Shown: positions 2,516 through 29,476 of the stretch, in pieces
Layout: each line of letters starts with the position of its first letter
Position numbering within the stretch: the first letter of the stretch is position 1
Assembly (NCBI GenBank): GCA_964360065.1
Contig: CAYHTW010000001.1
Location: 86,289-150,288, forward strand
Source: an uncultured Candidatus Saccharibacteria bacterium
GTDB taxonomy: Bacteria; Patescibacteriota; Minisyncoccia; UBA6257; Colwellbacteraceae
Direction: 5' to 3'
DNA length: 64,000 bases
The notes under the pieces: generated by a model
Database searches by the model: none
Seen by the model: only the letters and a program-made list of their open reading frames with translations
Told to the model about the DNA's origin: nothing
Translations under genes and position numbers: made by a program

Positions 2516-3430
2516 ATGGAGAAGTTTAAAGTAATAGCCGTGGTAGGGCCGACCTCCAGCGGCAAAAGCGATCTGGCTGTGGAATTAGCCAGGCGTTTTA
2601 ATGGTGAAGTGATCTCGGCTGACTCCAGGCAGGTATATAAGGGTTTAAATATCGGCAGCGGCAAGATCACAATAAGCGAGATGAAAGGCGTGCCTCATTA
2701 TCTGCTAGATGTTTCTTCTCCGAAAGCTCCGCCGGCTGGCGGATTCACCGTATCTAAATACAAAGCATTGGCTGCGAAAGCCATCAATAAAATTATCAAA
2801 AAGCGTAAAGTACCGATTATCTGCGGCGGCACTGGGCTTTACGTTGATACTGTTCTTTATAACTGGCCGATACCAGAGGTTAAAGCTGATACGAAGCTGA
2901 GAGCCAAACTCCATTTGCAGAGCGCCGAGAAATTATTTAAGACATTGCAGAAACTGGATCCGAATAGAGCTAAAAATATTGATAGATTCAATAAGCTAAG
3001 ACTGGTGAGAGCCTTGGAAATAATAAAAACTACGGGCTCTCCTGTCCCCTACTTCCAACTCTTTGATTTAAATGCGTCGCCATACGAGATACTTAAAATA
3101 GGATTAAGGCCTAAAACTAAACTACTTAAAGAGAAAATAAGAAATCGGCTTCTGAAAATGATTAAGGCCGGAATGGTCAGAGAAGTTAGAAATTTAAAAA
3201 AGAATGGAGTGAATTCCAAAAGACTGGAAAGTTTCGGTTTGGAGTACAGATATGTTAATAGATATCTGGAGGGCCGGATTAGTAAAAACGAGATGGTGGA
3301 AGAACTAACAAGCCAGATAAATCATTATGCCAAGCGGCAAATGACCTGGTTCAAGAGAGATAAAAATACTATTTGGTTAGATGCTCCAGGAGCATCTTTT
3401 TCAAAAGTTCGGGATTTCCTCTCCCCTTAA
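2516..3430 (+). CDS. miaA: tRNA dimethylallyltransferase
   Basis: P-loop GPTSSGKS, ISADSRQVYKGLNIGSGK, GGTGLY motifs. Confidence 0.9.
   Translation: MEKFKVIAVVGPTSSGKSDLAVELARRFNGEVISADSRQVYKGLNIGSGKITISEMKGVPHYLLDVSSPKAPPAGGFTVSKYKALAAKAINKIIKKRKVPIICGGTGLYVDTVLYNWPIPEVKADTKLRAKLHLQSAEKLFKTLQKLDPNRAKNIDRFNKLRLVRALEIIKTTGSPVPYFQLFDLNASPYEILKIGLRPKTKLLKEKIRNRLLKMIKAGMVREVRNLKKNGVNSKRLESFGLEYRYVNRYLEGRISKNEMVEELTSQINHYAKRQMTWFKRDKNTIWLDAPGASFSKVRDFLSP
2727..2744. repeat. GC palindrome family copy CTCCGCCGGCTGGCGGAT inside miaA (encodes PPAGG in frame)
   Basis: CCGCCGGCTGGCGG core; the corresponding MiaA region looks about 4 aa longer than E. coli MiaA as I recall it. Confidence 0.8.
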
Positions 3431-4826
3431 GCTCACTCATCGCTTTACCTATTAAGAACTGAAGAGAAACCTCTTTGCCTTTTCTATAGTCCTCTACAGC
3501 CTTGGAATTGGCTTCAATGATCCTAACAATCGTCTCCCGTAGAGTTCCCTCGTCATGAATTTGTGTTAATCCCCTTTTTTCAATGATATCTGATGGGTCA
3601 CCTCCAGTACTAAACATTTCCGCAAGCACTATTTTAGCTGCAGATGAAGAAGTTGACCCTTCAAAGACTATTGTTATAAATTCTGCAAAGTTCCCTGGCT
3701 TAATCATATCCGCTAACGGTCCTCGTTTAGCGTTAGGTTGGGCAAATAAATATTGAATATCACCCATTAAATAATTTGCAGTCATTTTCATCATCCTAAG
3801 ATGTTCATCTCCTTTTTTAGGCAGATTTTTATCTTCAACCAAAATGTCCAATTCAGAAATAGCTTCTTCAAAATATTTAGCAAATTTTCTATCTGAAACT
3901 AAAACTTCTACGTCTTGTGCTGGCAAACCATATTCGGAGACAAACCTCTTCCTTTTCTCGGCTGGCAATTCCGGTATCTCAATCTGAAGATTCTGTATGA
4001 CATCTGCCGGAATCGTGACAGGCGGCAGATCCGGTTCGGGAATATATCTGTAGTCGTGGGCGTTCTCTTTGGTTCTTTGTGAAAAAGTTTCCATCTTAAC
4101 ATCGTCCCACCCTCTGGTTTCTTGTTTAACTTTTTCGCCAGCCTCTAAAACTTTGACCTGCCTAGTCACTTCATAAGCAATGGCGTTTTTGACAGCGCTG
4201 AAGGAATTGATATTTTTAAGTTCCACTTTATCTCCTAGCTTATCGGTTTTAGAAACAGAAATGTTAGGCTCAACTCTCATTTGGCCTTTTTCCATATCGG
4301 CGTCGGAAACTCCCAAGTAACGCAGGATGAGCTGTAACTCTTTGGCGAAAGCAAAGGCTTCGTCAGCCGACTCAATATCCGGGTCAGTGACAAGCTCCAT
4401 TAAAGGAATGCCCGCTCTATTATAATCAACATAAGAAGATTTGCCGTCTTGCCCGTGCAGCAAACGGGCTGTGTCTTCTTCCAAATGAATCCTAGTCAGT
4501 TTAACGCCGTTTAAAGAGCCTCCTACAACCAGTGGTTCGTCGTATTGGGAAATCTGATAACCTTTAGGCAAGTCAGGGTAGAAGTAATTCTTCCTATCAA
4601 ACTTGGAAGGGTTGCCTATCTTGCTTCCTAAAGCCAAACCGACTTTAACGACGGCTTCAACTGCTTTCTTATTAATGGTCGGCAAAACACCCGGATGAGC
4701 CAAGCAGATGGGGCAAATATTCAAATTGGGGATCTTTTCGTCCGGATCGTTCTTGCAGGAACAAAACATCTTAGACTCCGTCTTAAGTTCCGCGTGTATT
4801 TCTAGTCCTATAATAGTTTTATACAT
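3369..4826 (-). CDS. gatB: Asp-tRNA(Asn)/Glu-tRNA(Gln) amidotransferase subunit B
   Basis: N-terminal IGLEIHAEL...KMFCSC motif, full-length GatB-like 485 aa. Confidence 0.9.
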   Translation of the reverse strand: MYKTIIGLEIHAELKTESKMFCSCKNDPDEKIPNLNICPICLAHPGVLPTINKKAVEAVVKVGLALGSKIGNPSKFDRKNYFYPDLPKGYQISQYDEPLVVGGSLNGVKLTRIHLEEDTARLLHGQDGKSSYVDYNRAGIPLMELVTDPDIESADEAFAFAKELQLILRYLGVSDADMEKGQMRVEPNISVSKTDKLGDKVELKNINSFSAVKNAIAYEVTRQVKVLEAGEKVKQETRGWDDVKMETFSQRTKENAHDYRYIPEPDLPPVTIPADVIQNLQIEIPELPAEKRKRFVSEYGLPAQDVEVLVSDRKFAKYFEEAISELDILVEDKNLPKKGDEHLRMMKMTANYLMGDIQYLFAQPNAKRGPLADMIKPGNFAEFITIVFEGSTSSSAAKIVLAEMFSTGGDPSDIIEKRGLTQIHDEGTLRETIVRIIEANSKAVEDYRKGKEVSLQFLIGKAMSELKGRGNPELLKKMLLEHLTK

Positions 4827-4882: not shown

Positions 4883-5013
4883 CCTACAATAGGACTTACA
4901 TAAACAGATGCAGTTCTAGGAGCACGAGTAAAATGGAACGAAATGTACTGATATAAGTACATTGAGCGAGATTTTACGCGGTGCGACAACGAAATGCGCT
5001 GTTTGTGTAAGTC

Positions 5014-5439
5014 CTAACTTACATCAATGCCCATACTGCGGGCGGTACCGGCGATAATCTTCTCGGCTGCTGCGGCGTCGTAGGCGTTCAAATCAACCAT
5101 TTTACGCTCAGCAATTTTCTTAACATCAGCTCGACTCACTTTACCTACCTTAGTTTTATTAGGTACGCCTGAGCCTTTCTCCACCCCAGCGGCTTTTCTT
5201 AGTAAATCCGAAGCTGGAGGAGTCTTCAATTTAAAAGTGAAAGACCTGTCCTCAAAGATGGTAATCTCGGCCGGGACGATGTCGTTACCCATTTCTTTAG
5301 TAGCTTCATTAAACTGCCTGCAGAATTCCTGGATATTCACACCCTGGGGGCCTAGGGCTGTACCAATCGGAGGAGCTGGATTAGCTTTGGTGGCCTCAAT
5401 TTGGATCTTTATTATTGTTTTTACTTTCTTAGCTGCCAT
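5014..5439 (-). CDS. rplK: 50S ribosomal protein L11
   Basis: Near-canonical L11 sequence ([28 protein letters not shown]). Confidence 0.95.
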
Positions 5440-5455
5440 AGGACTATTATTATAT

Positions 5456-6010
5456 TTAATTTTTTTTGATTTGCAATGAGTCCAGCTCCACGGCAGTATC
5501 CCGGCCGAAAACCGGCACTAAAACCTTAACTCTGCCTCTCGACTCATCAACTTCTGAAATCTTACCATCATAATCCTTGAATGGCCCGTCAGTTATTCGA
5601 ACCATCTCACCAATTCTGAAATCAACTTTAAATTTAGGCTCATCTCCGCTCATCCTGGCCTTCAAAGATTCTACCTCTTCATAAGACAAAGGCGTGGGGC
5701 TTGTGCTGTCAGATCCCACGAAACCAGTAACACGAGGAGTGTTGCGAACCACGTACCAGGAATCGGGCTCCATAATCATTTCCACTAAAACATAACCAGG
5801 ATAGATTTTCTCTTCTGTGGTAGTTCTCTTACCAGCTTTAATCTTAATACTCTTCTCTTTAGGAACGATGATGTTAAAAATTTTGTCGTTCATCGCCAAT
5901 GACTCAACCCTTTGCTTTAAGTAACGAGAAACGGCGTCTTCGTAACCGGCGTACGTGTGAACCGCGTACCAGCGTCTTAAATCAGTTTTTTCTTCTTTGA
6001 CGGCTTTCAT
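5456..6010 (-). CDS. nusG: Transcription termination/antitermination factor NusG
   Basis: [14 protein letters not shown]-domain start, C-terminal KOW ([22 protein letters not shown]). Confidence 0.9.
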
Positions 6011-6011
6011 A

Positions 6012-6200
6012 TTAAATCTTCAAGACTCTCTCCAGGATAGTAATAAATATATAGTCCAAAGCTCCCAAAAAGGCCGCCACAAAAATGGAAATAGCAATCA
6101 CAACTATAACCATTTTAGTGGCTTCTTTTCTGGTGGGCCAGTTGATACGTTTAAATTCCTCCTGGGACTCGGCTAAAAAGAGCCTGATTCGGGTAAACAT
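6012..6200 (-). CDS. secE: Preprotein translocase subunit SecE
   Basis: 62-aa single-TM protein with INWPTRKE motif, immediately upstream of nusG as in the conserved secE-nusG-rplK cluster. Confidence 0.8.
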   Translation of the reverse strand: MFTRIRLFLAESQEEFKRINWPTRKEATKMVIVVIAISIFVAAFLGALDYIFITILERVLKI

Positions 6201-6227
6201 TATTTATGTAGAATAGTAAAAAATCGC

Positions 6228-19788: not shown

Positions 19789-20349
19789 TTATTGGTAATA
19801 TGTATCTATTATCAAACTATAGTTTAGCGCGGTTTTGCCCGCGGCTCCTCCTACATCAACACTTAAGGAGCTAACATCCATGAGTCTGATATTGGTTTCT
19901 AACCCTTCCAAATAGCCTTTCACGTTCCTGTAGTCACCGGTGAATTTAACCGTGATTCTTACGATACCCACGGGCTTAATAAGAGAATCCTTAGGAACGG
20001 CTTTGATGGGCGGGTACTGTAGCGACAAACCGGTAATAGTCATGTTATTAAGCCCAGCTATGCCCTGGATTTGCTGCACAATAGATGGCACCTCTTCTTG
20101 GATTGGCAGAACCGTAGAGATGCTGTTCTGGATATCGGTCAGGCTTTGATACTGTCCCAAAAGTTTATTAACCGCGTTGATAGCATCTCTCTGATCGTTC
20201 AAAAGATTTTCATCGGCCAGCTGCTTATCTTTCAGGGTCTGTATATCGGAATAGGTCGGCACCACAAAGTTGGAGTAAACAACCACCGCTCCGATAAGAA
20301 GTCCGATGCTCCCCAAAATACTTATTAACCTATAAGTTGATGATTTCAT
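19789..20349 (-). CDS. pilO: Type IV pilus assembly protein PilO-like
   Basis: N-terminal TM, coiled-coil, position after pilN. Confidence 0.6.
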   Translation of the reverse strand: MKSSTYRLISILGSIGLLIGAVVVYSNFVVPTYSDIQTLKDKQLADENLLNDQRDAINAVNKLLGQYQSLTDIQNSISTVLPIQEEVPSIVQQIQGIAGLNNMTITGLSLQYPPIKAVPKDSLIKPVGIVRITVKFTGDYRNVKGYLEGLETNIRLMDVSSLSVDVGGAAGKTALNYSLIIDTYYQ

Positions 20350-20875
20350 TTTTGAAAGTAATTCTTAACGTGAATTTAACAGTTTTATCGGTAGCGGAAG
20401 AGTCGTCCAGTACAACTCTCTCTACCCAAGGCGAATTTTCATATAACGCCAGCTGTCCGGCCAAAACCTCATAAGAAGAAGCGTAGCCTTGAATCTTAAG
20501 AGTCTCGTCGGGGATGGTGAAATTAGTAGAAGTGTAAACGACTTTTTGGTCGGTAGCTGCTTCTATGAGAGGCAAAAGCTTGGAAGAAAGAACGTGCTTG
20601 GCAAGCATTCCCTTTAAGTTAGAAATCTGGGAGTAAAATTCAACGAAGTTACTTTGCTCGTCTGGAGAGATCTGAGTCGAAAGACTTTTTAACTCGTCTT
20701 CTGTTTTGATAATCTGTCCTTCTACATAAGGCTTATAGCCAAAAAGAAGTCCTAGGTAAGCAACGATGGAACATGCAAAAAGCAGGGAAAAAAGTATGAA
20801 CATACGCCACGGCCAGCCCACCGAGACGTGGTCTTTCAGAAATCTGTCGTTAGCTGTTTCTGTGTATTGAGCCAT
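20330..20875 (-). CDS. pilN: Type IV pilus assembly protein PilN-like
   Basis: Single TM bitopic protein directly after pilM. Confidence 0.6.
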   Translation of the reverse strand: MAQYTETANDRFLKDHVSVGWPWRMFILFSLLFACSIVAYLGLLFGYKPYVEGQIIKTEDELKSLSTQISPDEQSNFVEFYSQISNLKGMLAKHVLSSKLLPLIEAATDQKVVYTSTNFTIPDETLKIQGYASSYEVLAGQLALYENSPWVERVVLDDSSATDKTVKFTLRITFKNEIINL

Positions 20876-20876
20876 T

Positions 20877-21968
20877 TTACATAAATTGCCTGATGCCCAA
20901 GCCCAAGGCTACGGAGAAAGGCGGACCTATTTCCTTAATAAGCGGCGCCACTTCAGGCGGATAGGTGATTTTAGCGAAAGGATCGGCTTTGACTGCCGGA
21001 ATACCGAACTGGTCGGAAACATATTTCTCCAAACCAAGCAGGTTAGCTCCCCCGCCGGACAAGATAATGCGCTCTATCTTGCTCTTATAGTTCTTTTCGT
21101 AAGTATCTTTGGCCCTTTTCGCCTCTCCAAGTATAACATCCAATAGAGGCATCATTAAAGTGGAGAGTTCGTATTCACCACCCGTTCCCAAAAGTCCTTT
21201 CTGTTTTTTGAGTTCTTCGGCGCGTTTGATGTTGATGCCAAGGCTAGACGAAACAGCTTGAGTCAGAGATCCGCCTCCCCAATCTGTTTGCACGCTGTAT
21301 TTCAAAAGGCCTTTTTCGGCCACAAGCAGAGCCGTAGAGCGCGAACCGATATCAACTATCAAGGTGGTGGTGGGGTCGCCTGCTGTTAATACTCTTGCTA
21401 AACTTACGCCTTCTATTTCCAGGGCCTTCAAATTTAATCCGGCTGATTTAAAAATACGCTGGTACTTTCTGACTTGTTCGTTGGGCACCGAAACAAGGAA
21501 TACTTGCTGATGTTTAATCCCCTTCTCGTCTTCGTACTCGCCAACGGGAAGCCAATCAATGCTTACTTCCGAAATCGGCAACGGCACGAAAGCTTTTGCC
21601 TGGTATTCCATCGCCTGGGCAGTTTCTTGTGGAGACATGACGGGTACGTCCAGTAGCGCCGTGAAAGCGGAAAAAGTCGGCAGAGAAGCTATCACATCCG
21701 TTGTTTTTATTTTTAGATTTCTAAGCAGTTGGTTCATCAGCTCACCCGTTTCCTTGTCCAGCATTTTCAGGGTTGAGGTCTGGATAGCGTTATTAAGGCG
21801 CTCCAAGTGGCCGTAGGATTCCAAAACACCGTAGTTCCTAAGCGTGGGGTGTCCACCGCTTTCGGTCAGCTCAACAATCTTAATAGAAGTAGTGCCGATA
21901 TCCACACCTAAGTAAGTCTTCTTGCCCATGAGAGATCCAAGAGAACCGAAAGATTTCAAAAAATTCAT
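20877..21968 (-). CDS. pilM: Type IV pilus assembly protein PilM (actin-like ATPase fold)
   Basis: GVDIGTTSIKIVEL N-terminal actin-fold motif. Confidence 0.85.
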   Translation of the reverse strand: MNFLKSFGSLGSLMGKKTYLGVDIGTTSIKIVELTESGGHPTLRNYGVLESYGHLERLNNAIQTSTLKMLDKETGELMNQLLRNLKIKTTDVIASLPTFSAFTALLDVPVMSPQETAQAMEYQAKAFVPLPISEVSIDWLPVGEYEDEKGIKHQQVFLVSVPNEQVRKYQRIFKSAGLNLKALEIEGVSLARVLTAGDPTTTLIVDIGSRSTALLVAEKGLLKYSVQTDWGGGSLTQAVSSSLGINIKRAEELKKQKGLLGTGGEYELSTLMMPLLDVILGEAKRAKDTYEKNYKSKIERIILSGGGANLLGLEKYVSDQFGIPAVKADPFAKITYPPEVAPLIKEIGPPFSVALGLGIRQFM

Positions 21969-21983
21969 CTTAGTTATATTATA

Positions 21984-22053
21984 CCAGGTAGTAGAAATTC
22001 GGCTAATTTATATTTGTCGCAAAAAGCGACCAGCCGAATTTTCACTACCTGGT
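21984..22053. promoter_or_regulatory. Long imperfect palindrome in divergent pilM/comFC promoter region (candidate operator)
   Basis: ACCAGGTAGTAGAAATTCGGCT ... AGCCGAATTTTCACTACCTGGT, with a small central hairpin GTCGC-AAAAA-GCGAC. Confidence 0.45.
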
Positions 22054-22064
22054 TATATCTTAAA

Positions 22065-22745
22065 ATGAGCATCTTGAGAAAAAGTTGGGCTTTCGCGCTG
22101 GACATCTTCTTCCCTCCCCTCTGCCTAAATTGCCAAAACTATCTGGAGGAAAACGAAAAACCAGACTTGGTCTGCCGTGAATGTTTAGAGAAGATTGAGT
22201 TGAATAAGATCCTATTTCATCCTAATAATATTTCTGGTATTAACTTTTCACTGGCTGCTGCCGCTTCTTACAATGATAAAACCGTTAAGGAGCTAATCCA
22301 CCATCTCAAATACAATGGGCTAACGGGAGCGACTAAACCTCTGGGAGAGTTTATCTTGAAGTACTTAACCGACATTAACCTAAATAGGGCAGACTGGATT
22401 TTAGTTCCTATCCCCCTTCATTCATCAAAATACAGAAAGCGAGGCTTTAATCAGGCGGAGCTCATAATTGAAGAAGTAAACAAGAAGTTGAGGTTACAGA
22501 TTATTACCAAGGCACTAAAAAGAGTTAGAGAAACCGACCCGCAGATAACTTTTTCCGGAACGAAAAGGGAAGAAAATGTTAAAAATTGTTTCGGCCCAGG
22601 AGAAGAAATAAACCTGGTAAGAGATAAAAAAGTTATTTTAGTTGATGATGTCTACACTTCCGGCGCCACAATGAAAGAAGCGATAAAAGTTTTACGTAGG
22701 AATGGAGTTAAAGAAGTTATGGGGTTGGTAGTGGCGAAGGCGTAA
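22065..22745 (+). CDS. comFC: Competence protein ComFC (phosphoribosyltransferase-domain protein)
   Basis: N-terminal Cys cluster (CLNC..CREC), C-terminal PRTase motif VILVDDVYTSGAT; start taken at MSILRK rather than ORF-track 22014. Confidence 0.8.
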   Translation: MSILRKSWAFALDIFFPPLCLNCQNYLEENEKPDLVCRECLEKIELNKILFHPNNISGINFSLAAAASYNDKTVKELIHHLKYNGLTGATKPLGEFILKYLTDINLNRADWILVPIPLHSSKYRKRGFNQAELIIEEVNKKLRLQIITKALKRVRETDPQITFSGTKREENVKNCFGPGEEINLVRDKKVILVDDVYTSGATMKEAIKVLRRNGVKEVMGLVVAKA

Positions 22746-22810
22746 AATAGAATTTTAAAAAAAGTGTACTTAATTTATGGAAGGATAATTTCTCCCTAAC
22801 GTAGATTAAT

Positions 22811-23476
22811 CTAACTTTTAGATTTTTCTGCTTTCAGTCTCTGCCTCAACTTTTTCTCCTTTTTGTAGACTTCAATAACTCCTTTAATCACTATCTGTTT
22901 TAATGGTTCATAGTCTCTATATTTATCTGCCCTACAAAGGGCTTCTAGGTATTTTTCTTTCATATCTCCCTCATATTTAACTTGGGATGGCTTGATGCCA
23001 TATCTCTGTAAGACAAGATTGGTCAGTAAACGAGCAGTTCTTCCATTACCTTGAGAAAAAGGATGTATTGAAACGAATTTATGTTGCGCCCAAACAGCTA
23101 ATTCTATAACATCTGACCACCATTTCTTATACTTAGTACTTTTAAAAGAGCTAAACCTAGGGCGAAGCTGTATTAAGGAACTTCTGTAATCGAAATCTCT
23201 CCAGAAGTTATAAATTTCTTCGTTCACTTTACTTCCCTCAGGAGGTTGAACGCACCTTAACTTTCGGACACCTTGGCCAGTTACTCTGAACTTACCAGCG
23301 ATTTGTGGTTCAGAATCCTTAAGGATCTCTGCGTGTATAGACCTTATGGTGTTAAGAGTTATTTTCTGCCGACTATCAGCTATACTTTTCACTAAGCCAA
23401 TAGCTCTCCAGAGACCAGCTACCTCTTTATCATCAAGTTCTCTTTTAGTTTTAGGACGAGAGAACTTCTTTGCCAT
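22811..23476 (-). CDS. Fic/Doc family protein (Fido domain)
   Basis: HPFSQGNGRTARLL matches Fic motif HxFx(D/E)GNGRxxR except Q at the acidic position. Confidence 0.85.
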   Translation of the reverse strand: MAKKFSRPKTKRELDDKEVAGLWRAIGLVKSIADSRQKITLNTIRSIHAEILKDSEPQIAGKFRVTGQGVRKLRCVQPPEGSKVNEEIYNFWRDFDYRSSLIQLRPRFSSFKSTKYKKWWSDVIELAVWAQHKFVSIHPFSQGNGRTARLLTNLVLQRYGIKPSQVKYEGDMKEKYLEALCRADKYRDYEPLKQIVIKGVIEVYKKEKKLRQRLKAEKSKS

Positions 23477-23690
23477 ACAAAGCTTTCTCTATCTGTTCAT
23501 TAGTTAGCTTGGTTCCTTCTATTTTAGAAGAATAGTAAAGATGCCCAATCGCAATATCTTGGTTAAATCTGGCCTGCTCTAAAGCAGATAGAGATGGTAA
23601 TTTACCAACCTCACACTCAAGATTAATGAGATGCTCTATCAAGGCCTCATTAGGGGAAACCTTATTTTTTGAAACCATTTTTTTCTTCAT
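23451..23690 (-). CDS. Small ORF carrying Fic inhibitory-helix motif (SSKIEG = [ST]xxxE[GN]); antitoxin-like, or frameshifted N-terminus of the Fic gene
   Basis: Overlaps Fic ORF start by 26 bp in a different frame; motif matches class I Fic antitoxins. Confidence 0.5.
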   Translation of the reverse strand: MKKKMVSKNKVSPNEALIEHLINLECEVGKLPSLSALEQARFNQDIAIGHLYYSSKIEGTKLTNEQIEKALYGKEVLSS

Positions 23691-23854
23691 TTTCGAGGTC
23701 TTTTAAAGAGTTCATAGAACAATCGCTTGTTCTTGCTACAGTAACTATAGCGACTTAGCTTGCTATTGTAAAGTCTAGTAAATAGGCAAAAATAAAGCTC
23801 CTAATCCTCCCGCTTTTTTGAGAACCGACTTTTTAGCTCATCCAAAAAGGTAGA

Positions 23855-23972
23855 AAAGTTATTCTGGTTGATGACGTCTATACCTCGGGCGCCACGATGA
23901 GAGAAGCGGTAAAAGTTTTAAGGAAGAATGGAGTTAAAGAAGTTATGGGGTTGGTAGTGGCGAAGGTTTGAG
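23855..23972 (+). pseudogene. Duplicated 3' fragment of comFC (encodes ..KVILVDDVYTSGATMREAVKVLRKNGVKEVMGLVVAKV*), in-frame stop upstream
   Basis: About 118 bp direct repeat of 22627-22745; last 45 bp identical, upstream part about 88% identical. Confidence 0.7.
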
Positions 23973-23977
23973 AAAGA

Positions 23978-24676
23978 TTACTCAATATTGTCTGACTTTT
24001 GAAGATTATGCTTCATACAAAGCAAACGAACATTTTTTGAAGACAAACTAGTCCCTCCTCTAGAAAATGGTAGGTCGTGGTCAAAGTGAAGATTCTTAGT
24101 CTCTCCACACTTAACACATTTGCCCTCATCTCTTTTCCAGACCTCTCTCTTAACTTCAGATGGGATTAACCGCGTGTACTCAATATGAACTTTTCTTGAG
24201 TCAAGATTTTCTTGCCGATCCGACAATCTTAAGATGAAACGAAATACATTTCGTTTACCATCGTGGACAATTTTGTAATCAATAAGATCAAAATATCCTT
24301 TCAAAGACCATACTCCAGGGAAAATTTTCTCATATACTTTAACTGGCTCTGCTGCATCAGTATTTTCTTTATAACTTTTAGCCGCCTTAATAAAATATCC
24401 ATTCTGAGTTAATTGTCCGCTAGGTAATTTATCTGGCTGGTCTTCTACTTTAGGGTTGTGATTATAAGCCCTCCTAGAAACATCGTGACCCTCGTACTCA
24501 ATAGTTAACCCATCTTCGTGAACTTTATCCTGATAGGGCGCGTTAGATCTCTGAGACATTAATATTACAGAGTAAGCCGGGTTCATTCTAAAGTTCATAC
24601 CACGCTGTAAAGTCTGAACATTCTCAGCGTCACACATTTCTCTATAACTTAATATATCGTTCTGAATTTTATTCAT
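23978..24676 (-). CDS. SRA-like domain fused to HNH endonuclease (candidate modification-dependent type IV restriction enzyme)
   Basis: N-terminal SRA-like motifs (AYSVILMSQ.., EDGLTIEYEGHD, QLTQNGYF, EPVKVY); C-terminal HNH (CVKCGETKNLHFDHDLPFSRGG..N..LLC..HN). Confidence 0.65.
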   Translation of the reverse strand: MNKIQNDILSYREMCDAENVQTLQRGMNFRMNPAYSVILMSQRSNAPYQDKVHEDGLTIEYEGHDVSRRAYNHNPKVEDQPDKLPSGQLTQNGYFIKAAKSYKENTDAAEPVKVYEKIFPGVWSLKGYFDLIDYKIVHDGKRNVFRFILRLSDRQENLDSRKVHIEYTRLIPSEVKREVWKRDEGKCVKCGETKNLHFDHDLPFSRGGTSLSSKNVRLLCMKHNLQKSDNIE

Positions 24677-24691
24677 AAGTTAAAGTATTTA

Positions 24692-27001
24692 TTATTCACT
24701 ACCAGATTCAAGAACTTCTTGGACGACACCTTGTACGCTGTCTCCCTCCTCGGGCGTGATTGGCATGTGACTTTTGTTTGTGCTCTTCGGCAATAGAATT
24801 CTACGCCCATCTTTTTTGTCATACATCTTTATCGTTACATTATCGCCAAGTAGAGCGACAACCCTATTACCTGTGTCTGCCTTTAGTTGCTGGCGGCATA
24901 AAACAAGATCACCATCATTTATACCTGCTAGATTCATTGAGTCACCTTCAGCCCTAAGTACGAAATACTCGAAACCTGGCTTGATTTTCGTTTTCTCTAC
25001 TGAAATGTATTCCTCAATGTTTTCCTGTCCTAATAAAGGATTGCCGCAAGGAGCAGACCCAACGAGTGGTATACGAAGCATATTCAAAGTAATGGGAGAA
25101 AAGACCGGTGCAACAAATTTTTGATAACTCTCCCCCGTTTCAATTCTACTTTTGAAAAACTTTTCTGTCTCTTTATCTACAAAATACACATAGCACCCCT
25201 TCATTCCACGAGTAAGAAGAACGCGATAAGTATTTTTAAGAAGATCAACAAGTTTTTCTCCAGAGCGCTTCACGACACTATCTGCGGATTTTTCTCGTAA
25301 CGCAATCCATGTCTGATTTTCAAAGTTGTAAACAAGATCCGGACCGATAATGACTCCGACATAGTCAAATTCAAATCCTTGAATCGTATAAATACTGCCT
25401 ATCTGATTCACTCCATTTGGATCATTCGGCCACAGCGAGGCCGGCGGAATCCCTGGGGCGAGTTTATAACCGTCTTTGCCTTCCCAGGGCATTTGAAAAT
25501 TGCCGATTTTAACGTCATTTACTAGCGTCCCGTCTGGATTAGGGTTGCTCCATGGCCAGCAAAAACCTGAGACAAGCCGCGCAGAACCTTGTTTCTCATC
25601 GCTTTTTTGTTTTATCTTTACATATAGTTCTTGAGGAGAATCTACAATTTGAAAATCAAACTCTTCTTTCTGGTCCCAAATGACGTTCGCTGTACGTTTG
25701 ATGCCGAGTGTATTATTTACCCAGTTCACAAATGCATCTGACCCGCTACACCGAAATTGCGCTTCTAACTCATAATTATAAACCTCACATCCCAACTTTA
25801 TAGCGGTATCTTTGATAAATTCCGCGGACCCCGTTTCATTAGGACGAACGTTTTGATTGTCATCAATAAAAAACACCCCAATTTTTGATGCCTTTATAAG
25901 CTCCTCAATTTGAGGGGTGTCTGATCGCATTTCTTTTTTTGTAAACCGGTTATTACTCGTCTCTCTTATTCGATGAGCTTCATCAGCAATAAGAACATCT
26001 AGAATATTCTTCTTAGAATTCATATAACTATTAAAATACTTAAATTGAACAGCTCCGCGAACACCAATCTTTTTCCTTAACGTCTCGGTAAATGCTTTCG
26101 ACCCCGTAGCATAGTTAGTGTCATATCCTGCACGCAGCAAATCCGCCATCAGATTAATAGCAATCACCGATTTTCCAGTGCCAGGACCACCACTAATAAT
26201 TACAACTGACTTTTTGTCTTTACCAAGCCCTTGTTTAACAAGGGAAATAACCTTGTCATATACAATAAGCTGTTCATCGAGAAGCACATACTCACTCCTA
26301 TTTTTTATCATCATACTCACATGGTCCATGAGTTTTTTACTCACTTTGTATTCCGTTTTCTCCACTCGTTCGAGTATTGGCAACCCACCTCCCGCTGAAA
26401 GTCTGTCTTTAAGGTATTCACTAAAAATATCTACACCATCCGCGCAAAAAATTGGATTATTTTTTATTTTTTCTGTAAATTTCATTGCTAGAAGCTCATC
26501 ATCCTTTGTAGGAGAATAATTATGAAGATAAGAAGCTGCGTCTAATTTGATAGAGCCTTCACCGTCAAATGCTGGGTGAAGATCTTGTAAATACATCTTA
26601 TATTGCCCGACTTGAACGGATGGATGAAGAACTTCTCTCTTCGCTCCTCCGACCCATGTAGCTACTTCATTCTCTCCATCTGATGCCTCACACTTCTCCC
26701 ATTGTTTAAGCTCAATAATAACTGCCCTATCACTTCCTGATTGATCTCTGCCAGTTATCATACAATCGAGACGCTTGGATGTTTGAGGAAGTTGATATTC
26801 AAGAATCACTCCGTGATCATCCAACCCCGAGTAATCGAACACTTGGGAGACAGCACGAAGAGAATTTCTCCACGACTGCACCTCGTTTGGGGAAGGATAA
26901 TACCTAAAGTACTGGAAGAAAGATTCTCTAAGTTTGTCTCCTATTTCGTTATGAACGGTGTCGTTTAAAAACTGAACGGATGAGCCCGAATAGAGTCTCA
27001 T
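24692..27001 (-). CDS. Three-domain protein: PD-(D/E)xK nuclease + DUF2075-type P-loop ATPase/helicase (Nhi-like) + C-terminal LexA-type S24 autopeptidase domain
   Basis: N-term LDCMITG..AVIIELKQW (D..ExK); Walker A GGPGTGKS, Walker B LIADEAHR; C-term IPLVGSAPCGNPLLG..FVLRAEGDSM..VTIKMY aligns to LexA CTD including cleavage-site region and Ser/Lys dyad. Confidence 0.75.
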   Translation of the reverse strand: MRLYSGSSVQFLNDTVHNEIGDKLRESFFQYFRYYPSPNEVQSWRNSLRAVSQVFDYSGLDDHGVILEYQLPQTSKRLDCMITGRDQSGSDRAVIIELKQWEKCEASDGENEVATWVGGAKREVLHPSVQVGQYKMYLQDLHPAFDGEGSIKLDAASYLHNYSPTKDDELLAMKFTEKIKNNPIFCADGVDIFSEYLKDRLSAGGGLPILERVEKTEYKVSKKLMDHVSMMIKNRSEYVLLDEQLIVYDKVISLVKQGLGKDKKSVVIISGGPGTGKSVIAINLMADLLRAGYDTNYATGSKAFTETLRKKIGVRGAVQFKYFNSYMNSKKNILDVLIADEAHRIRETSNNRFTKKEMRSDTPQIEELIKASKIGVFFIDDNQNVRPNETGSAEFIKDTAIKLGCEVYNYELEAQFRCSGSDAFVNWVNNTLGIKRTANVIWDQKEEFDFQIVDSPQELYVKIKQKSDEKQGSARLVSGFCWPWSNPNPDGTLVNDVKIGNFQMPWEGKDGYKLAPGIPPASLWPNDPNGVNQIGSIYTIQGFEFDYVGVIIGPDLVYNFENQTWIALREKSADSVVKRSGEKLVDLLKNTYRVLLTRGMKGCYVYFVDKETEKFFKSRIETGESYQKFVAPVFSPITLNMLRIPLVGSAPCGNPLLGQENIEEYISVEKTKIKPGFEYFVLRAEGDSMNLAGINDGDLVLCRQQLKADTGNRVVALLGDNVTIKMYDKKDGRRILLPKSTNKSHMPITPEEGDSVQGVVQEVLESGSE

Positions 27002-27003
27002 AA

Positions 27004-27351
27004 TTAGAGTTTATTATATTTCGTATGTTTCCCTTTGGCTTTTTCAACTGGATACTTATCTTCATTCTTTTTAATTTTTTTATCCAGCGCATCCAAGACA
27101 TTAATATCCAAGTCGTGACTCATAAGTAAAACCCAATACAAAACATCCGCTAGTTCTTCTCCAATTTCATCTTTATGGGTCCTAACATACTCTTCTATCT
27201 CCTCCTTACTCTTCCATTGGAAATGTTCCATTACTTCTCCAGCTTCGAGCACTAGTGACAACGCAACATCCTTAGGATTATGGAATTGTTTCCAATCCCG
27301 CGCATCTCGGAAAGCAATTATTCTTTTAAGTAGATCATTAATTTTTGGCAT
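27004..27351 (-). CDS. MazG-like nucleoside triphosphate pyrophosphohydrolase (small all-alpha NTP-PPase)
   Basis: EAGEVMEHFQWK ... EEIGEELADVLYWVL MazG signature; stop 3 bp before the start of the 769-aa gene (operon). Confidence 0.75.
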   Translation of the reverse strand: MPKINDLLKRIIAFRDARDWKQFHNPKDVALSLVLEAGEVMEHFQWKSKEEIEEYVRTHKDEIGEELADVLYWVLLMSHDLDINVLDALDKKIKKNEDKYPVEKAKGKHTKYNKL

Positions 27352-27438
27352 TTAATTGAACTAATTATGCCCCACTAAATAAGAATAGAGAAGGCTTAGT
27401 CCTAATATAGAGGCAGCTTTAGTGTTTTTGTATTGGAT

Positions 27439-27963
27439 CTAGCCAAGATCCGTGAATCCGAGAGCTTCAAAAAGCTCAATAATAACTCTTTCTCCGCCAA
27501 CTTGCGTATGTATATTTGCGATGCCAAAGTGATCACAGACATTCGGTATTTTATCTTTCAAACGATTAGCTTGTAGAGGAAGCTGATGTGGTTTTTCACA
27601 AGTCACAATAACTGACACTTCCAATAAAGCGTCCGCAATAAGATATGGATCTGCTTGTTCATATTCGCTATCAGGATCTATAATCTTTGGAAAAGCTATA
27701 ACAACTTCAGCAGCTTTACTTTCCACGATAGTACCGGAAACTTTTACAATTTTCTTTTTTATGCTTTTAATCCAATTATGAGTGAAATCGTCTTTTCTAC
27801 TGAGTTCATTGTAAACTTTATCAAGAACAAATAACTTTCCTTCCTCTGCCGCACGCTCAATCTTTTCCCATACTTTCGGGAAGAGGTGGATAGGATAAGT
27901 CTTGCTGATTTGAAGCATCGCACTCGTATCGAGAGAGTATTTTTTACTTTCTGTTTGGCTCAT
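27439..27963 (-). CDS. DUF4411-like PIN-fold protein (partner of ImmA/IrrE peptidase)
   Basis: 174 aa, N-terminal YSLDTS acidic start typical of PIN-like folds; 4-bp overlap with upstream HTH-peptidase gene. Confidence 0.5.
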   Translation of the reverse strand: MSQTESKKYSLDTSAMLQISKTYPIHLFPKVWEKIERAAEEGKLFVLDKVYNELSRKDDFTHNWIKSIKKKIVKVSGTIVESKAAEVVIAFPKIIDPDSEYEQADPYLIADALLEVSVIVTCEKPHQLPLQANRLKDKIPNVCDHFGIANIHTQVGGERVIIELFEALGFTDLG

Positions 27964-29198
27964 TGTTGATGAGATGGAGGCTTTATTTGCGCATAGTGCT
28001 GATTTGTTTTATCGATAACTTTCTCTAAACCAGCAAGTTTAACGTTAAGAAAAGTCACTAGCTCGTTGGTGGATATGACTCCTTTTGCGGCAGCGGCGAA
28101 AGCTTTCTGACTTAAGTCGTAACTACTACTTTTAACTATGTCTCGGTAGTAGTCGGGAACAAATTTTTGTCCTTTTTCTTCCGCTTTTTTCCTTTTTCTT
28201 AGTTCTTCTCGCTCATACCATTTCTGCAACTCTACCCTCTTCATTTCATACTCTCTTTCGGACATATAGCCATGATTAACAAATTTTCTATAAATCACTT
28301 CACCACTGACCTTATATAGGTAAACAAGATTAGTTACTAATCTATCATCTTTAGTAACAAGATATTTTTTGACATATTCATTACCCAAAAAATCTTCGTT
28401 CGGTACTAAGAAAGATCCAGCAAATTCATTTGCTTTTATTTCAATTAACTTATGAGCAAGCTTTTCTCCTTTAGAAAATACTAAAGAATCTATGTCTTTT
28501 TGTGACAAAAGTAAGTGATAAAACTCATGAAATAGAGTAAAAATCCTTCCTCGAATAGCATCCCCCGCATTTAGAACGATAACCGGAGGAAGGCTGTCTT
28601 CTCTTAAGCAAAATCCCCTAATCTCTTGTTTGGGAAATGGAAGCTGAAAAACAGGTATTCCGCTGCCTTCAATAATATCAATCCATCTATTAAAGGCGAA
28701 TCCTTCACTCTTCCATCCCTTTTGTTCTTCAATGCTTATATTAAGATATTTTCTAAACTCGCCTGCTAGTTCGGTTGGATTGGAATTAAAACTTATTGGT
28801 TTTAACTTAACAAACTCGCTCTTTGTGACTTCGAGAAGATAGGCATAAAACTTCCTATTCCTTTGAGCTTTCCTGATAGCTAATCTAACCTTTGGGGAGA
28901 GTGTCTCGACATTGACGCTATCGAGGGTTCTAAAATCCCTTGGGATAGGATTTATGGTTGGTGGGTTATTAAGAAAAAAGAAGCTTAACGTCCTCTTTTC
29001 TGTTTTAGCTAGCTTCTTAAGATCACTGATTTTTACTTCTGAATCTACGTCTTCCCATTTTCTAAGTTCTTCGATATCAATTTTGGATTTCTCACTCACG
29101 GCTTCGATAGAAAGACCAATAGACTCTCTGGCCCATTTCATGATGGCTTTCTTTACTACAATTTTATTTTTTGGTTTTTCTTTTTTGAGACTTATCAT
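27960..29198 (-). CDS. HTH (XRE-type) + ImmA/IrrE family zinc metallopeptidase
   Basis: N-terminal HTH, HExxH motif FTLFHEFYHLLL. Confidence 0.8.
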   Translation of the reverse strand: MISLKKEKPKNKIVVKKAIMKWARESIGLSIEAVSEKSKIDIEELRKWEDVDSEVKISDLKKLAKTEKRTLSFFFLNNPPTINPIPRDFRTLDSVNVETLSPKVRLAIRKAQRNRKFYAYLLEVTKSEFVKLKPISFNSNPTELAGEFRKYLNISIEEQKGWKSEGFAFNRWIDIIEGSGIPVFQLPFPKQEIRGFCLREDSLPPVIVLNAGDAIRGRIFTLFHEFYHLLLSQKDIDSLVFSKGEKLAHKLIEIKANEFAGSFLVPNEDFLGNEYVKKYLVTKDDRLVTNLVYLYKVSGEVIYRKFVNHGYMSEREYEMKRVELQKWYEREELRKRKKAEEKGQKFVPDYYRDIVKSSSYDLSQKAFAAAAKGVISTNELVTFLNVKLAGLEKVIDKTNQHYAQIKPPSHQQ

Positions 29199-29252
29199 AA
29201 ATTATTTCCAAAAAGAATTAATTAAAACTCTTAAATGCTCTCATTTTTGCAT

Positions 29253-29342
29253 TGGCGGAAGCGGGAGGATTTGAACCTCCGATACCCTTTCGGGTATACC
29301 ACATTTCGAGTGTGGCGCCTTCAACCACTCAGCCACGCTTCC
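29253..29342 (-). tRNA. tRNA-Ser (anticodon CGA), 90 nt, CCA encoded
   Basis: Manual fold: GGAAGCG acceptor, anticodon arm CCACA-CTCGAAA-TGTGG, long variable arm, T arm GGAGG-TTCAAAT-CCTCC, 3' CGCTTCC-G-CCA. Confidence 0.9.
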
Positions 29343-29371
29343 TTATTCTATTGTAATGGACTCCTTCAACC

Positions 29372-29407
29372 CCTGCCTGCCGGCAGGCAGGACTCAGCCA
29401 CGCTTCC
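29372..29407. repeat. 20-bp perfect palindrome CCTGCCTGCCGGCAGGCAGG followed by a 17-bp duplicate of the tRNA-Ser 5' end (ACTCAGCCACGCTTCCT)
   Basis: Second copy of the tRNA 5' acceptor/D-arm segment located about 50 bp upstream of the tRNA. Confidence 0.6.
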
Positions 29408-29476
29408 TTTTGGGTTTGTTAGAGCTTAGCCCGAAGGCTGGATAATCTCAAGATTAGCAATAAGGTGTCTGAATAA

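Follow-up and report, generated by a model that had tools for sequence, protein, structure and literature searches.

Introduction

How defence and toxin/antitoxin (TA) genes move without an integrase or transposase is an open mechanistic question. Insertion with long target duplication was reportedly described for restriction-modification (R-M) genes by Nobusato et al. in 2000. In this work, we analyzed a window of 64,000 nucleotides (contig CAYHTW010000001.1 of assembly GCA_964360065.1, positions 86,289 to 150,288) from an uncultured groundwater bacterium of the Patescibacteria, or candidate phyla radiation (CPR). In this window, the 3′ end of the competence gene comFC is found a second time downstream of the intact gene, and a putative Fic toxin/antitoxin pair lies between the two copies. 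We describe the anatomy of this direct repeat, the state of the same site in relatives and the ways by which the Fic cassette may have been inserted. The locus is a clear multi-state example of a known insertion type in an uncultivated phylum.

Integrase-less insertions of R-M genes are flanked by direct target repeats of 46 to >400 bp, some of them over gene 3′ ends; they are found mostly in naturally competent species, their mechanism is unknown, and the published repeats are 93–100% identical (Furuta, Abe & Kobayashi 2010, PMC2853133). The comFC locus resembles these insertions in that a small defence unit without a mobility gene is flanked by repeats far longer than transposon target duplications (122 bp here), and in that a related genome without the insert has one copy only, to which both repeats align. 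The published set is delimited by inserts of <20 kb without mobility genes, by repeats of >30 bp set against a single copy, and by an R-M cargo. The Fic unit comprises 1.2 kb, and an older island described below (island B) 3.5 kb in a relative (contig L036); the repeats are of 122–133 bp in the window when compared with L036, and of 50 bp in L036 when compared with two other relatives (contigs L001 and L002). The cargo is a Fic TA here and HNH, helicase/S24 and MazG genes in L036. As this is not an R-M cargo, the resemblance concerns the mode of insertion and not the cargo class that defines the published set. Further differences are the host, a member of the Patescibacteria, the identity of the copies (87.7%, with mostly synonymous or conservative, allele-like differences), and the use of the same target end at least twice, which built a tandem stack.

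Tandem accretion of attachment site (att)-flanked elements at a gene 3′ end is the situation of ICESt1 and the cis-mobilizable elements (CIMEs) at fda in Streptococcus thermophilus. Accretion at one gene end has also been described for the ssrA-targeted genomic islands of Dehalococcoides (PMC3146451). The comFC locus shares with both the serial insertion at a conserved gene 3′ end, the direct repeat left by each insertion and the element-borne terminal codons that keep the gene intact, and with the CIMEs also the integrase-less nature of the repeat-flanked units. In contrast, the arrays of ICESt1/CIME and of the ssrA islands contain an identifiable cognate tyrosine or serine recombinase in at least one unit and a repeat confined to the att core, whereas the open reading frames (ORFs) scanned here yielded no recombinase, the homology of one relic continues for 81 nt past the core, and the cargo modules are not faithful to this target elsewhere.

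Insertion-duplication mutagenesis, mainly a laboratory tool, relies on Campbell-type insertion of circular DNA into the genome of a naturally transformable bacterium by homologous recombination. The comFC locus is like its products in having a homologous fragment on both sides of the insert and one chimeric copy, with a divergence between copies that would be that of donor and recipient alleles and an exchange that would fall in the longest stretch of identity. A literature search returned no relevant report of comFC as an integration site.

A second comFC 3′ end downstream of the intact gene

A repeat scan of positions 20000–27000 yielded one outstanding direct repeat of 133 nt, 85% identical between copies and offset by 1226 bp (Table 1). 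By BLAST, the copies align without gaps over 122 nt with 87.7% identity (107/122), and the longest identical run between them, of 41 nt, ends two codons before the comFC stop. A 37-nt piece of this core occurs exactly twice in the 64-kb window and was not found in 100 shuffles. An initial sequence-only reading of this stretch had proposed that the 3′ end of comFC recurs downstream, with the reservation that alignment might show a much shorter or weaker similarity; the pairwise alignment bears the proposal out. An identical terminal block had also been described and does exist, its length being 41 nt and not 45, as the last 5 nt of the gene differ between the copies (copy 1 ends in GCG TAA, copy 2 in GTT TGA). 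The remainder, given there as about 88% identical, measured only 66/81 (81.5%) to the left of the block.

Translated in the comFC frame, copy 2 reads ...KGRKVILVDDVYTSGATMREAVKVLRKNGVKEVMGLVVAKV* and, in agreement with the same reading, still encodes the comFC C-terminus (...KVILVDDVYTSGATMREAVKVLRKNGVKEVMGLVVAKV*), with in-frame stops immediately upstream. Its being part of a larger second comF paralog, which would have overturned the proposal, was rejected, as the relic frame lacks a start codon and is preceded at once by stops. The intervening 1.1 kb carries only the Fic gene and an overlapping 79-aa partner gene, as had been stated.

An assembly artefact was likewise rejected, as identical junctions (L004–L009) were found in four ENA assemblies, one NCBI metagenome-assembled genome (MAG) and two Logan assemblies. 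The two-copy structure recurs in separately assembled data of groundwater well H52 (Hainich), in the NCBI MAG GCA_038058395.1 and in the unrelated run SRR32696697. An attC or hairpin nature of the repeat was rejected too: on neither strand does either copy fold better than shuffled sequences (z −1.2 to +0.4) or form the imperfect attC hairpin that characterizes integron gene cassettes.

One of the contigs with these junctions (L009, equivalent to window 22581–23879), with 3x coverage and from a replicate sample, has seven single-nucleotide differences from the window, all within 22621–22658 in the left part of copy 1, and only one difference in the next 1.2 kb. One of the seven changes the invariant DDVYTSG to DDGYTSG (V to G). 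These differences could be a conversion patch, strain variation or error; given the 3x coverage, the variant was treated as low-coverage noise or micro-heterogeneity and was not used as evidence.

The gene itself is an intact comFC. Its product matches Pfam Pribosyltran (1.3e-9) and DZR_2 (6e-5), as well as TIGR00201 comF (E=3.5e-28, below the trusted cutoff of that model), and shows the C-terminal phosphoribosyltransferase-type domain with a phosphoribosyl pyrophosphate (PRPP)-binding loop and the N-terminal Cys-rich zinc ribbon of the ComF/ComFC family. An identical protein at NCBI is named "ComF family protein", the alignment with relatives extends over the full length, and VILVDDVYTSGAT is conserved. 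As in relatives, comFC adjoins the type IV pilus genes pilM-N-O-B (pilB...pilO-N-M upstream).

The sequence that follows the core distinguishes the two ends. After the core, all relatives align as (A/G)CT TGA GAATTA..., copy 2 continues with GTT TGA GAAAGATTA... and L036 with GCG TGA GAAAAATTA..., whereas copy 1 continues with GCG TAA AATAGAATTTT..., which is unrelated to the relatives. Since the tail of copy 1 is unrelated and that of copy 2 is of the ancestral type, the cassette supplies the new comFC end and the relic keeps the old one. The footprint of an insertion into the comFC 3′ end with a replacement end, as proposed by the sequence-only reading, is thus upheld.

Empty, pre-insertion and alternative sites in relatives

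ComFC homologs of 75–83% identity were located and their contigs fetched, and three more contigs (L011–L013) came from a metagenome search with a degenerate core. In four lineages (L001, L002, L011 and L012/13) comFC directly adjoins tRNA-Ser(CGA), that is, the junction is empty. In L001 and L002, this tRNA gene lies about 40–120 nt past the comFC stop, followed in L001 by DsbB as in the window. A further relative (L003) carries a type I R-M system at the same place, starting 18 nt past the comFC stop. Empty sites, which the sequence-only reading had recommended looking for, were therefore found, and with them the arrangement preceding the Fic insertion.

This pre-Fic arrangement is that of L036, in which comFC is followed by the HNH-helicase/S24-MazG island, a comFC-3′ relic and tRNA-Ser. 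Positions 1431–2807 of L036 align with window 23845–25221 without gaps and with 90.4% identity, the intact comFC end of L036 running into HNH and helicase genes where the window has the relic followed by HNH and helicase genes. It follows from this collinearity that the window corresponds to the L036 arrangement plus a 1,226-bp insertion with a 122-nt target duplication.

Island B of L036 is, in turn, bracketed by a comFC-3′ repeat of its own (1511–1560 and 4973–5022, 50 nt, 90% identical). The distal relic (4973–5022) lies past MazG, contiguous with the native spacer and tRNA-Ser, and the corresponding sequence is single-copy in L001 and L002; its left edge is the same GAATGG, within 1–2 nt, at which the 41-nt block of the window starts. 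Island B was therefore itself inserted into the comFC end, and the window represents a later layer on top of it. The two cores of L036 differ at 4 of 41 positions, with a longest shared run of 17 nt. L036 is a Logan contig assembled at k=31, in which a repeat of ≥31 nt at the core would break the contig; as its cores share at most 17 identical nt, the contig was accepted. Its HNH gene (1563–2262) has a single in-frame stop (Q to *) and is otherwise intact, representing either a recent pseudogene or a sequencing error.

Altogether, the comFC 3′ end is a recurrent landing site at which defence cassettes have accumulated in series, and the empty and alternative junctions of the relatives identify window 22746–29250 as variable content at a hotspot. 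A wider survey of genome contigs for comFC-3′ relics returned only distant ComF loci (26–40% identity), none with a second C-terminal fragment within 10 kb, and the metagenome scan with the degenerate core returned only three further loci, all of them empty sites. The resulting series of states (empty site, one layer, two layers and alternative cargo) is unusually complete for uncultivated, reduced-genome Patescibacteria, and the competence gene stays intact at its 3′ end through all of them.

Divergence of the two copies and the identical block

Changes were polarized with six relatives as outgroups. The functional copy has nine derived changes (4 synonymous and 5 replacements) and the relic eight (5 synonymous and 3 conservative replacements), without any indel or stop in the latter. 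As random mutation of the relic sequence is expected to give about 78% replacements, the few and conservative replacements observed imply that the relic diverged while it was part of a working comFC. Judged by this pattern of changes, the two copies are most readily taken as different alleles and not as one duplicate that decayed in situ.

The 15 mismatches are also unevenly placed: the probability of finding none of them in the last 41 of 122 nt is about 0.001, both with uniform placement and with weighting by the variability among relatives, which vary in the 41-nt block about as much as elsewhere (13% vs 15% mean pairwise difference). Either crossover or conversion took place within the block, or the block is an att core that has been conserved. 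The sequence-only reading had called it the crossover core; its non-random nature is confirmed, and both of these interpretations fit it. A phylogenetic assignment of the 81-nt left part of the relic was attempted and abandoned, as the pairwise identities, all of 64–73/81 nt, gave no resolution.

Mode of insertion

A scan with Pfam revealed no recombinase, integrase or transposase domain in the cassette, in island B or in about 50 other ORFs of the window (nearly all of at least 120 aa), so that the integrase sought in the 64 kb was not found among these ORFs. A phage or plasmid origin was rejected: neither the core nor the Fic protein had a match in the viral contigs of IMG/VR, no phage-like attP was found, and matches to plasmid Fic proteins were all of about 30% identity. 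A Logan contig of 1,256 nt (L010), found in two samples, corresponds to window 22700–23955, i.e. 1,226 + 30 nt (k−1), running from the first base of core 1 to a point 30 nt within core 2. This length fits a circle or a tandem copy, and equally a k=31 graph simplification at the 41-nt repeat in low-coverage data, and it is therefore evidence neither way.

We consider, with a probability of about one half, that the 1,226-bp unit was inserted by recombinase-less, Campbell-type insertion-duplication, or "insertion with long target duplication". The unit would consist of the tail, the Fic toxin, the antitoxin, the promoter and about 81 nt of comFC-like sequence. A single reciprocal recombination of the resident comFC with a comFC 3′ segment carried by the incoming DNA, with the exchange or heteroduplex inside the 41-nt block, which ends two codons before the stop, would result in (i) an intact chimeric comFC, finished by the cassette-borne codons (GCG TAA), and (ii) a displaced 3′ relic, still adjacent to the older island on its downstream side. 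The agent would most likely be the host homologous-recombination machinery acting on DNA from related cells, with no dedicated integrase in cis; the host lineage carries comFC and type IV pilus genes of the competence type. The Fic event would then be one layer of a serial accretion at the hotspot. The circular or permuted nature of the intermediate, the enzyme and the order of events are what we infer from the anatomy of the locus and its relatives.

This preference draws on the anatomy of the repeat, the sites in the relatives, the lack of a recombinase gene among the ORFs scanned, the base composition of the cassette and the published R-M insertions. Homologs of the modules sit at unrelated loci, and the closest Fic module (contig L014) is flanked by repeats of another target, which favors a target-independent insertion-duplication over a comFC-specific integrase. 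Two copies that appear to be different alleles joined at a short identical block argue for recombination with foreign DNA and not for a staggered-cut duplication. Should the insertion be homology-driven, it would link natural competence to the assembly of defence islands in CPR bacteria.

Several observations weigh against such an insertion-duplication. First, the left edge of the L036 relic coincides with that of the window block, as expected of a defined att site and not of homology-driven recombination. In addition, a homology of 88% over 122 nt, with a 41-nt identical run, comes close to the minimum that RecA needs for efficient exchange, and the 50-nt, 90% identical repeat of L036, with its longest run of 17 nt, is short for a RecA-dependent event unless it diverged later. 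Besides, a circular or permuted intermediate, that is, the natural 1.2-kb donor that a Campbell-type event would call for, was not observed here (L010 being ambiguous), and flanking repeats were not found in two of the five Fic-module contexts examined (L017 and L040). Finally, a recombinase gene may lie in the part of the genome beyond the 64 kb, and natural transformation of this lineage is an assumption of the proposed mechanism.

The insertion had been considered site-specific by the sequence-only reading, a view that our results do not favor and that we regard as possible, if doubtful. A recombinase would have acted in trans on the 41–60-nt comFC end as an att site, its gene lying at another place in the genome or on a helper element, and the Fic and HNH-helicase-MazG units would be integrase-less, att-flanked (CIME-like) elements accreted in tandem. 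This would account for (i) the bracketing of two different cargos by comFC-3′ repeats whose left edges (GAATGG) coincide and whose right edges also agree, just past the stop, albeit in two events only, (ii) the restoration of the frame by each insertion with its own final codons, which is typical of elements targeting gene 3′ ends, (iii) the non-random identical block (P ~0.001), and (iv) the other footprints at tRNA-Ser, namely the inversion, the partial 5′ duplication, the 3′-end relic of L001 and the 13-nt fragment in the cassette (see below). As for integrative elements in general, the repeats are single-copy at unoccupied sites (L036, L001, L002 and L011–L013), and the same core boundaries recur in two events. 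However, no integrase, resolvase or transposase was found in or near the element, that is, in either unit or in the other window ORFs scanned, and the homology is not confined to an att site, as the window relic has 81 nt of extra in-frame comFC homology left of the core that would be needless for an attP arm. Nor is the cargo faithful to the target: homologs of the Fic and helicase modules lie at unrelated loci, and L014 has long repeats of another one. The core is absent from viral contigs, and the L036 cores differ at 4/41 positions. If the insertion were nonetheless integrase-driven, the comFC 3′ end would be a new att site and a trans-acting recombinase would be predicted.

A gene replacement with one illegitimate junction (homology-facilitated illegitimate recombination) appears quite unlikely. 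An incoming pil...comFC(new)-Fic TA segment would have recombined homologously upstream and been joined illegitimately within the resident comFC at codon ~186, leaving its last 122 nt as the relic; the L036 relic would have arisen independently in a similar way, and the identical 41 nt would be due to later gene conversion between the copies. In agreement with such an event, the relic, its tail and island B match L036 collinearly at about 90% identity, as opposed to only 78.8% for the 5′ part of comFC and 84% for pilM; the relics differ in length between events (122 vs 50 nt); the relic resembles a recently disabled working allele; and no recombinase was found in the ORFs scanned. Nevertheless, both the 41/41 identity (P ~0.001) and the position of the L036 relic edge within 1–2 nt of the block edge would need separate explanations. 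In its 81-nt left part, the relic shows no significantly greater similarity to L036 (70/81) than copy 1 does (67/81), and the cross-phylum conservation of the helicase module is so strong (64% aa identity to homologs in Bacillus and archaea) that a value of 90% tells little of ancestry.

An exact in-situ target duplication at insertion, by staggered breaks about 120 nt apart or replication slippage, followed by long divergence or by allele replacement upstream of the core, is very improbable: it formally fits "insertion with long target duplication", could leave the 41-nt block as the remnant of an originally identical repeat and has a parallel in the L014 repeats of similar length and divergence, yet long neutral decay is disfavored by the composition of the changes (5 synonymous to 3 conservative in the relic, no indel or stop, and 8 vs 9 derived changes), and the allele-replacement variant needs an extra event whose endpoint coincides with the L036 repeat edge.

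Returning to recombinase-less insertion-duplication, it is tempting to speculate that such cassettes are recombinase-free mobile units with a "portable homology arm" copied from a conserved host gene 3′ end (comFC here and another gene in L014), which would be taken up by host competence and inserted by a RecA single crossover. We hold this extension to be rather unlikely. If true, each hop would leave an allele-mismatched relic and a defence stack would build up at the target, which would amount to a transformation-dependent assembly of defence islands in Patescibacteria and would explain by what mechanism the "long target duplication" insertions, known since 2000, come about.

Table 1 Features of the comFC locus; positions are those of the 64-kb window.
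Feature	Position	Strand	Remarks
comFC (ComF-family phosphoribosyltransferase-like competence gene), intact	22065–22745	+	Last two codons and stop (GCG TAA) from inserted DNA
Direct repeat, copy 1	22619–22751	+	Functional comFC 3′ end and 6 nt past the stop
41-nt identical block, copy 1	22700–22740	+	Probable crossover or homogenized zone; L036 relic starts at the same GAATGG
Left end of inserted unit	22746–22810	.	Post-stop sequence unrelated to the native comFC-tRNA spacer of relatives (alignment)
Fic-domain gene (putative toxin), 221 aa, motif HPFSQGNGRTAR	22811–23476	−	Pfam Fic 8e-14; PADLOC SoFic and PDC-S04 matches
79-aa partner gene (putative antitoxin, by motif)	23451–23690	−	Overlaps Fic start by 26 nt; SSKIEG at residue 54
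Promoter-like site TTTACA-17-TATAGT, 10/12 matches	23744–23772	−	Consensus match only; upstream of antitoxin-Fic operon, inside the unit
13-nt exact copy of tRNA-Ser(CGA) T-arm/acceptor 3′ segment (AATCCTCCCGCTT)	23803–23815	+	Inside the cassette, 30 nt before the comFC relic
Direct repeat, copy 2	23845–23977	+	Displaced comFC 3′ relic, 40 codons and TGA; ancestral-type terminus (TGA GAA...); collinear with the intact L036 comFC end
41-nt identical block, copy 2	23926–23966	+	Identical to the copy 1 block
Island B, older cassette	23978–27351	−	HNH nuclease 23978–24676; SLFN-type helicase fused to S24 peptidase 24692–27001; MazG-like 27004–27351
RosmerTA-like pair	27439–29198	−	DUF4411 protein 27439–27963; HTH and M78 peptidase RmrA-like protein 27960–29198; absent from L036
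tRNA-Ser(CGA), far boundary of the variable region	29253–29342	−	30–120 nt past the comFC stop in empty-site relatives

The putative Fic toxin/antitoxin cassette

The cassette has a foreign base composition, with a GC content of 36.4% as compared with 43–45% in the flanking core genes. The best NCBIfam match of its Fic protein is "mobile mystery protein B", below the curated equivalog cutoff. The active-site motif (residue 138) has a Q at the position where HxFx(D/E)GNGRxxR usually has D or E; the closest homolog, encoded in L014, has the canonical E (HPFPEGNGRMAR). The 79-aa partner protein matched no Pfam, NCBIfam or PADLOC family. Its SSKIEG corresponds to the (S/T)xxxE(G/N) inhibitory-helix motif of class I Fic antitoxins (VbhA/FicA), and the partner gene lies upstream of the Fic gene and overlaps it, as in class I modules. 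On the basis of this motif and gene order, the partner is a predicted antitoxin and the pair a putative class-I-type Fic toxin/antitoxin operon. In having a small overlapping gene with an inhibitory motif ahead of Fic, the pair is like the class I modules VbhT/VbhA and FicT/FicA and the TIGRFAM "mobile mystery protein A/B"; it is unlike them in the Q of HPFSQGNGRTAR and in scoring below the curated equivalog cut-offs.

The 13-mer AATCCTCCCGCTT of the cassette occurs elsewhere, in the window and the fetched loci, only in tRNA-Ser genes. When the cassette ends were compared by short-word BLAST with the junctions between comFC and the tRNA gene in the relatives, no other match rose above noise. 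The fragment may be a relic of a former location of the cassette adjacent to tRNA-Ser.

Homologs of the modules at other loci

The pair of Fic and partner genes is conserved in four other contigs (L014, L017, L019 and L040), at unrelated loci: it has Mrr/NYN genes as neighbors in L014, lies beside a dehydrogenase gene in L017 and beside a serine recombinase gene in L019, and stands between housekeeping genes in L040. The L014 module, whose Fic protein shares 61% aa identity with that of the window, is flanked by direct repeats of 107 nt, 87% identical and spaced 1,246 nt apart, which consist of the last codons and the downstream region of a different gene. In L019, repeats of 45 nt surround an HTH-antitoxin-Fic group.

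The same contig L019, whose Fic module is a more distant one, has two adjacent gene groups, each bracketed by repeats: 375–516 and 2794–2936 (143 nt, 82%), and 3107–3151 and 5670–5714 (45 nt, 96%), with the second copy of the 45-nt repeat falling within a large serine recombinase gene, toward its 3′ end. Besides its repeat-flanked Fic module, L014 contains two elements of about 100 nt (4679–4779 and 5203–5303), 96% identical and strongly self-complementary (DNA fold z = −4.6), which flank a single gene of the 23S_rRNA_IVP family and recall attC- or miniature inverted-repeat transposable element (MITE)-like boundaries.

The HNH-helicase-MazG trio is also found at unrelated loci, without comFC and without a recombinase, in L037 and L039. 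An integrase-bearing version of island B was sought, and the two close helicase homologs examined sit at unrelated loci without a recombinase. The fusion of SLFN-type helicase and S24 peptidase is exceptionally conserved, with 84–88% aa identity among several contigs that are otherwise unrelated and about 64% to homologs in Bacillus and archaea, and it travels as a fixed MazG-helicase-HNH trio. Upstream of this trio in L039 (4700–9600), there is a run of small ORFs on the same strand with recurring palindromic motifs of about 25–33 nt between them and a 121-nt direct repeat (5354–5474 and 6104–6224, 94% identical), an arrangement that looks like a cassette array.

Downstream stack and the tRNA-Ser boundary

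The variable content between comFC and tRNA-Ser amounts to 6.5 kb (22746–29250), and the order of elements is comFC, Fic TA, relic, HNH-helicase/S24-MazG, RosmerTA-like pair and tRNA-Ser. The Fic unit is thus the innermost layer of a stack of defence cassettes, which the sequence-only reading had missed. The comFC-tRNA-Ser interval constitutes a marker locus for strain-level variation in defence in these groundwater populations.

The far boundary of this interval is itself variable. The tRNA-Ser(CGA) gene and its upstream spacer of about 40 nt are inverted between relatives (window 29253–29460; L001 3007–3109; L002 10688–10775; L011–L013), the gene being convergent with comFC in the window, L011, L012 and L013 and co-directional with it in L001, L002 and L036. 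The post-comFC spacer of L001 and L002, CTTGAGAATTAC...GTTAAGCTAC, lies in the window on the far side of the tRNA gene and reversed (~29400–29455), and is possibly the tRNA promoter. In the window, 18 nt of the tRNA-Ser 5′ end are also repeated directly and without mismatch (29327–29344 and 29392–29409), the copies being separated by a 47-nt insert with a GC-rich hairpin (CCTGCCTGCCGGCAGGCAGG). An analogous partial duplication of the tRNA-Ser 5′ end, with a different hairpin-bearing insert, is present in L002 and in neither L001 nor L036. Finally, L001 carries at ~3255–3285, about 170 nt downstream of its tRNA-Ser gene, a second fragment similar to the tRNA-Ser 3′ end (...TTCAATTCCCTCCCGCTTCCGCA...), which looks like an old att-type footprint at the tRNA.

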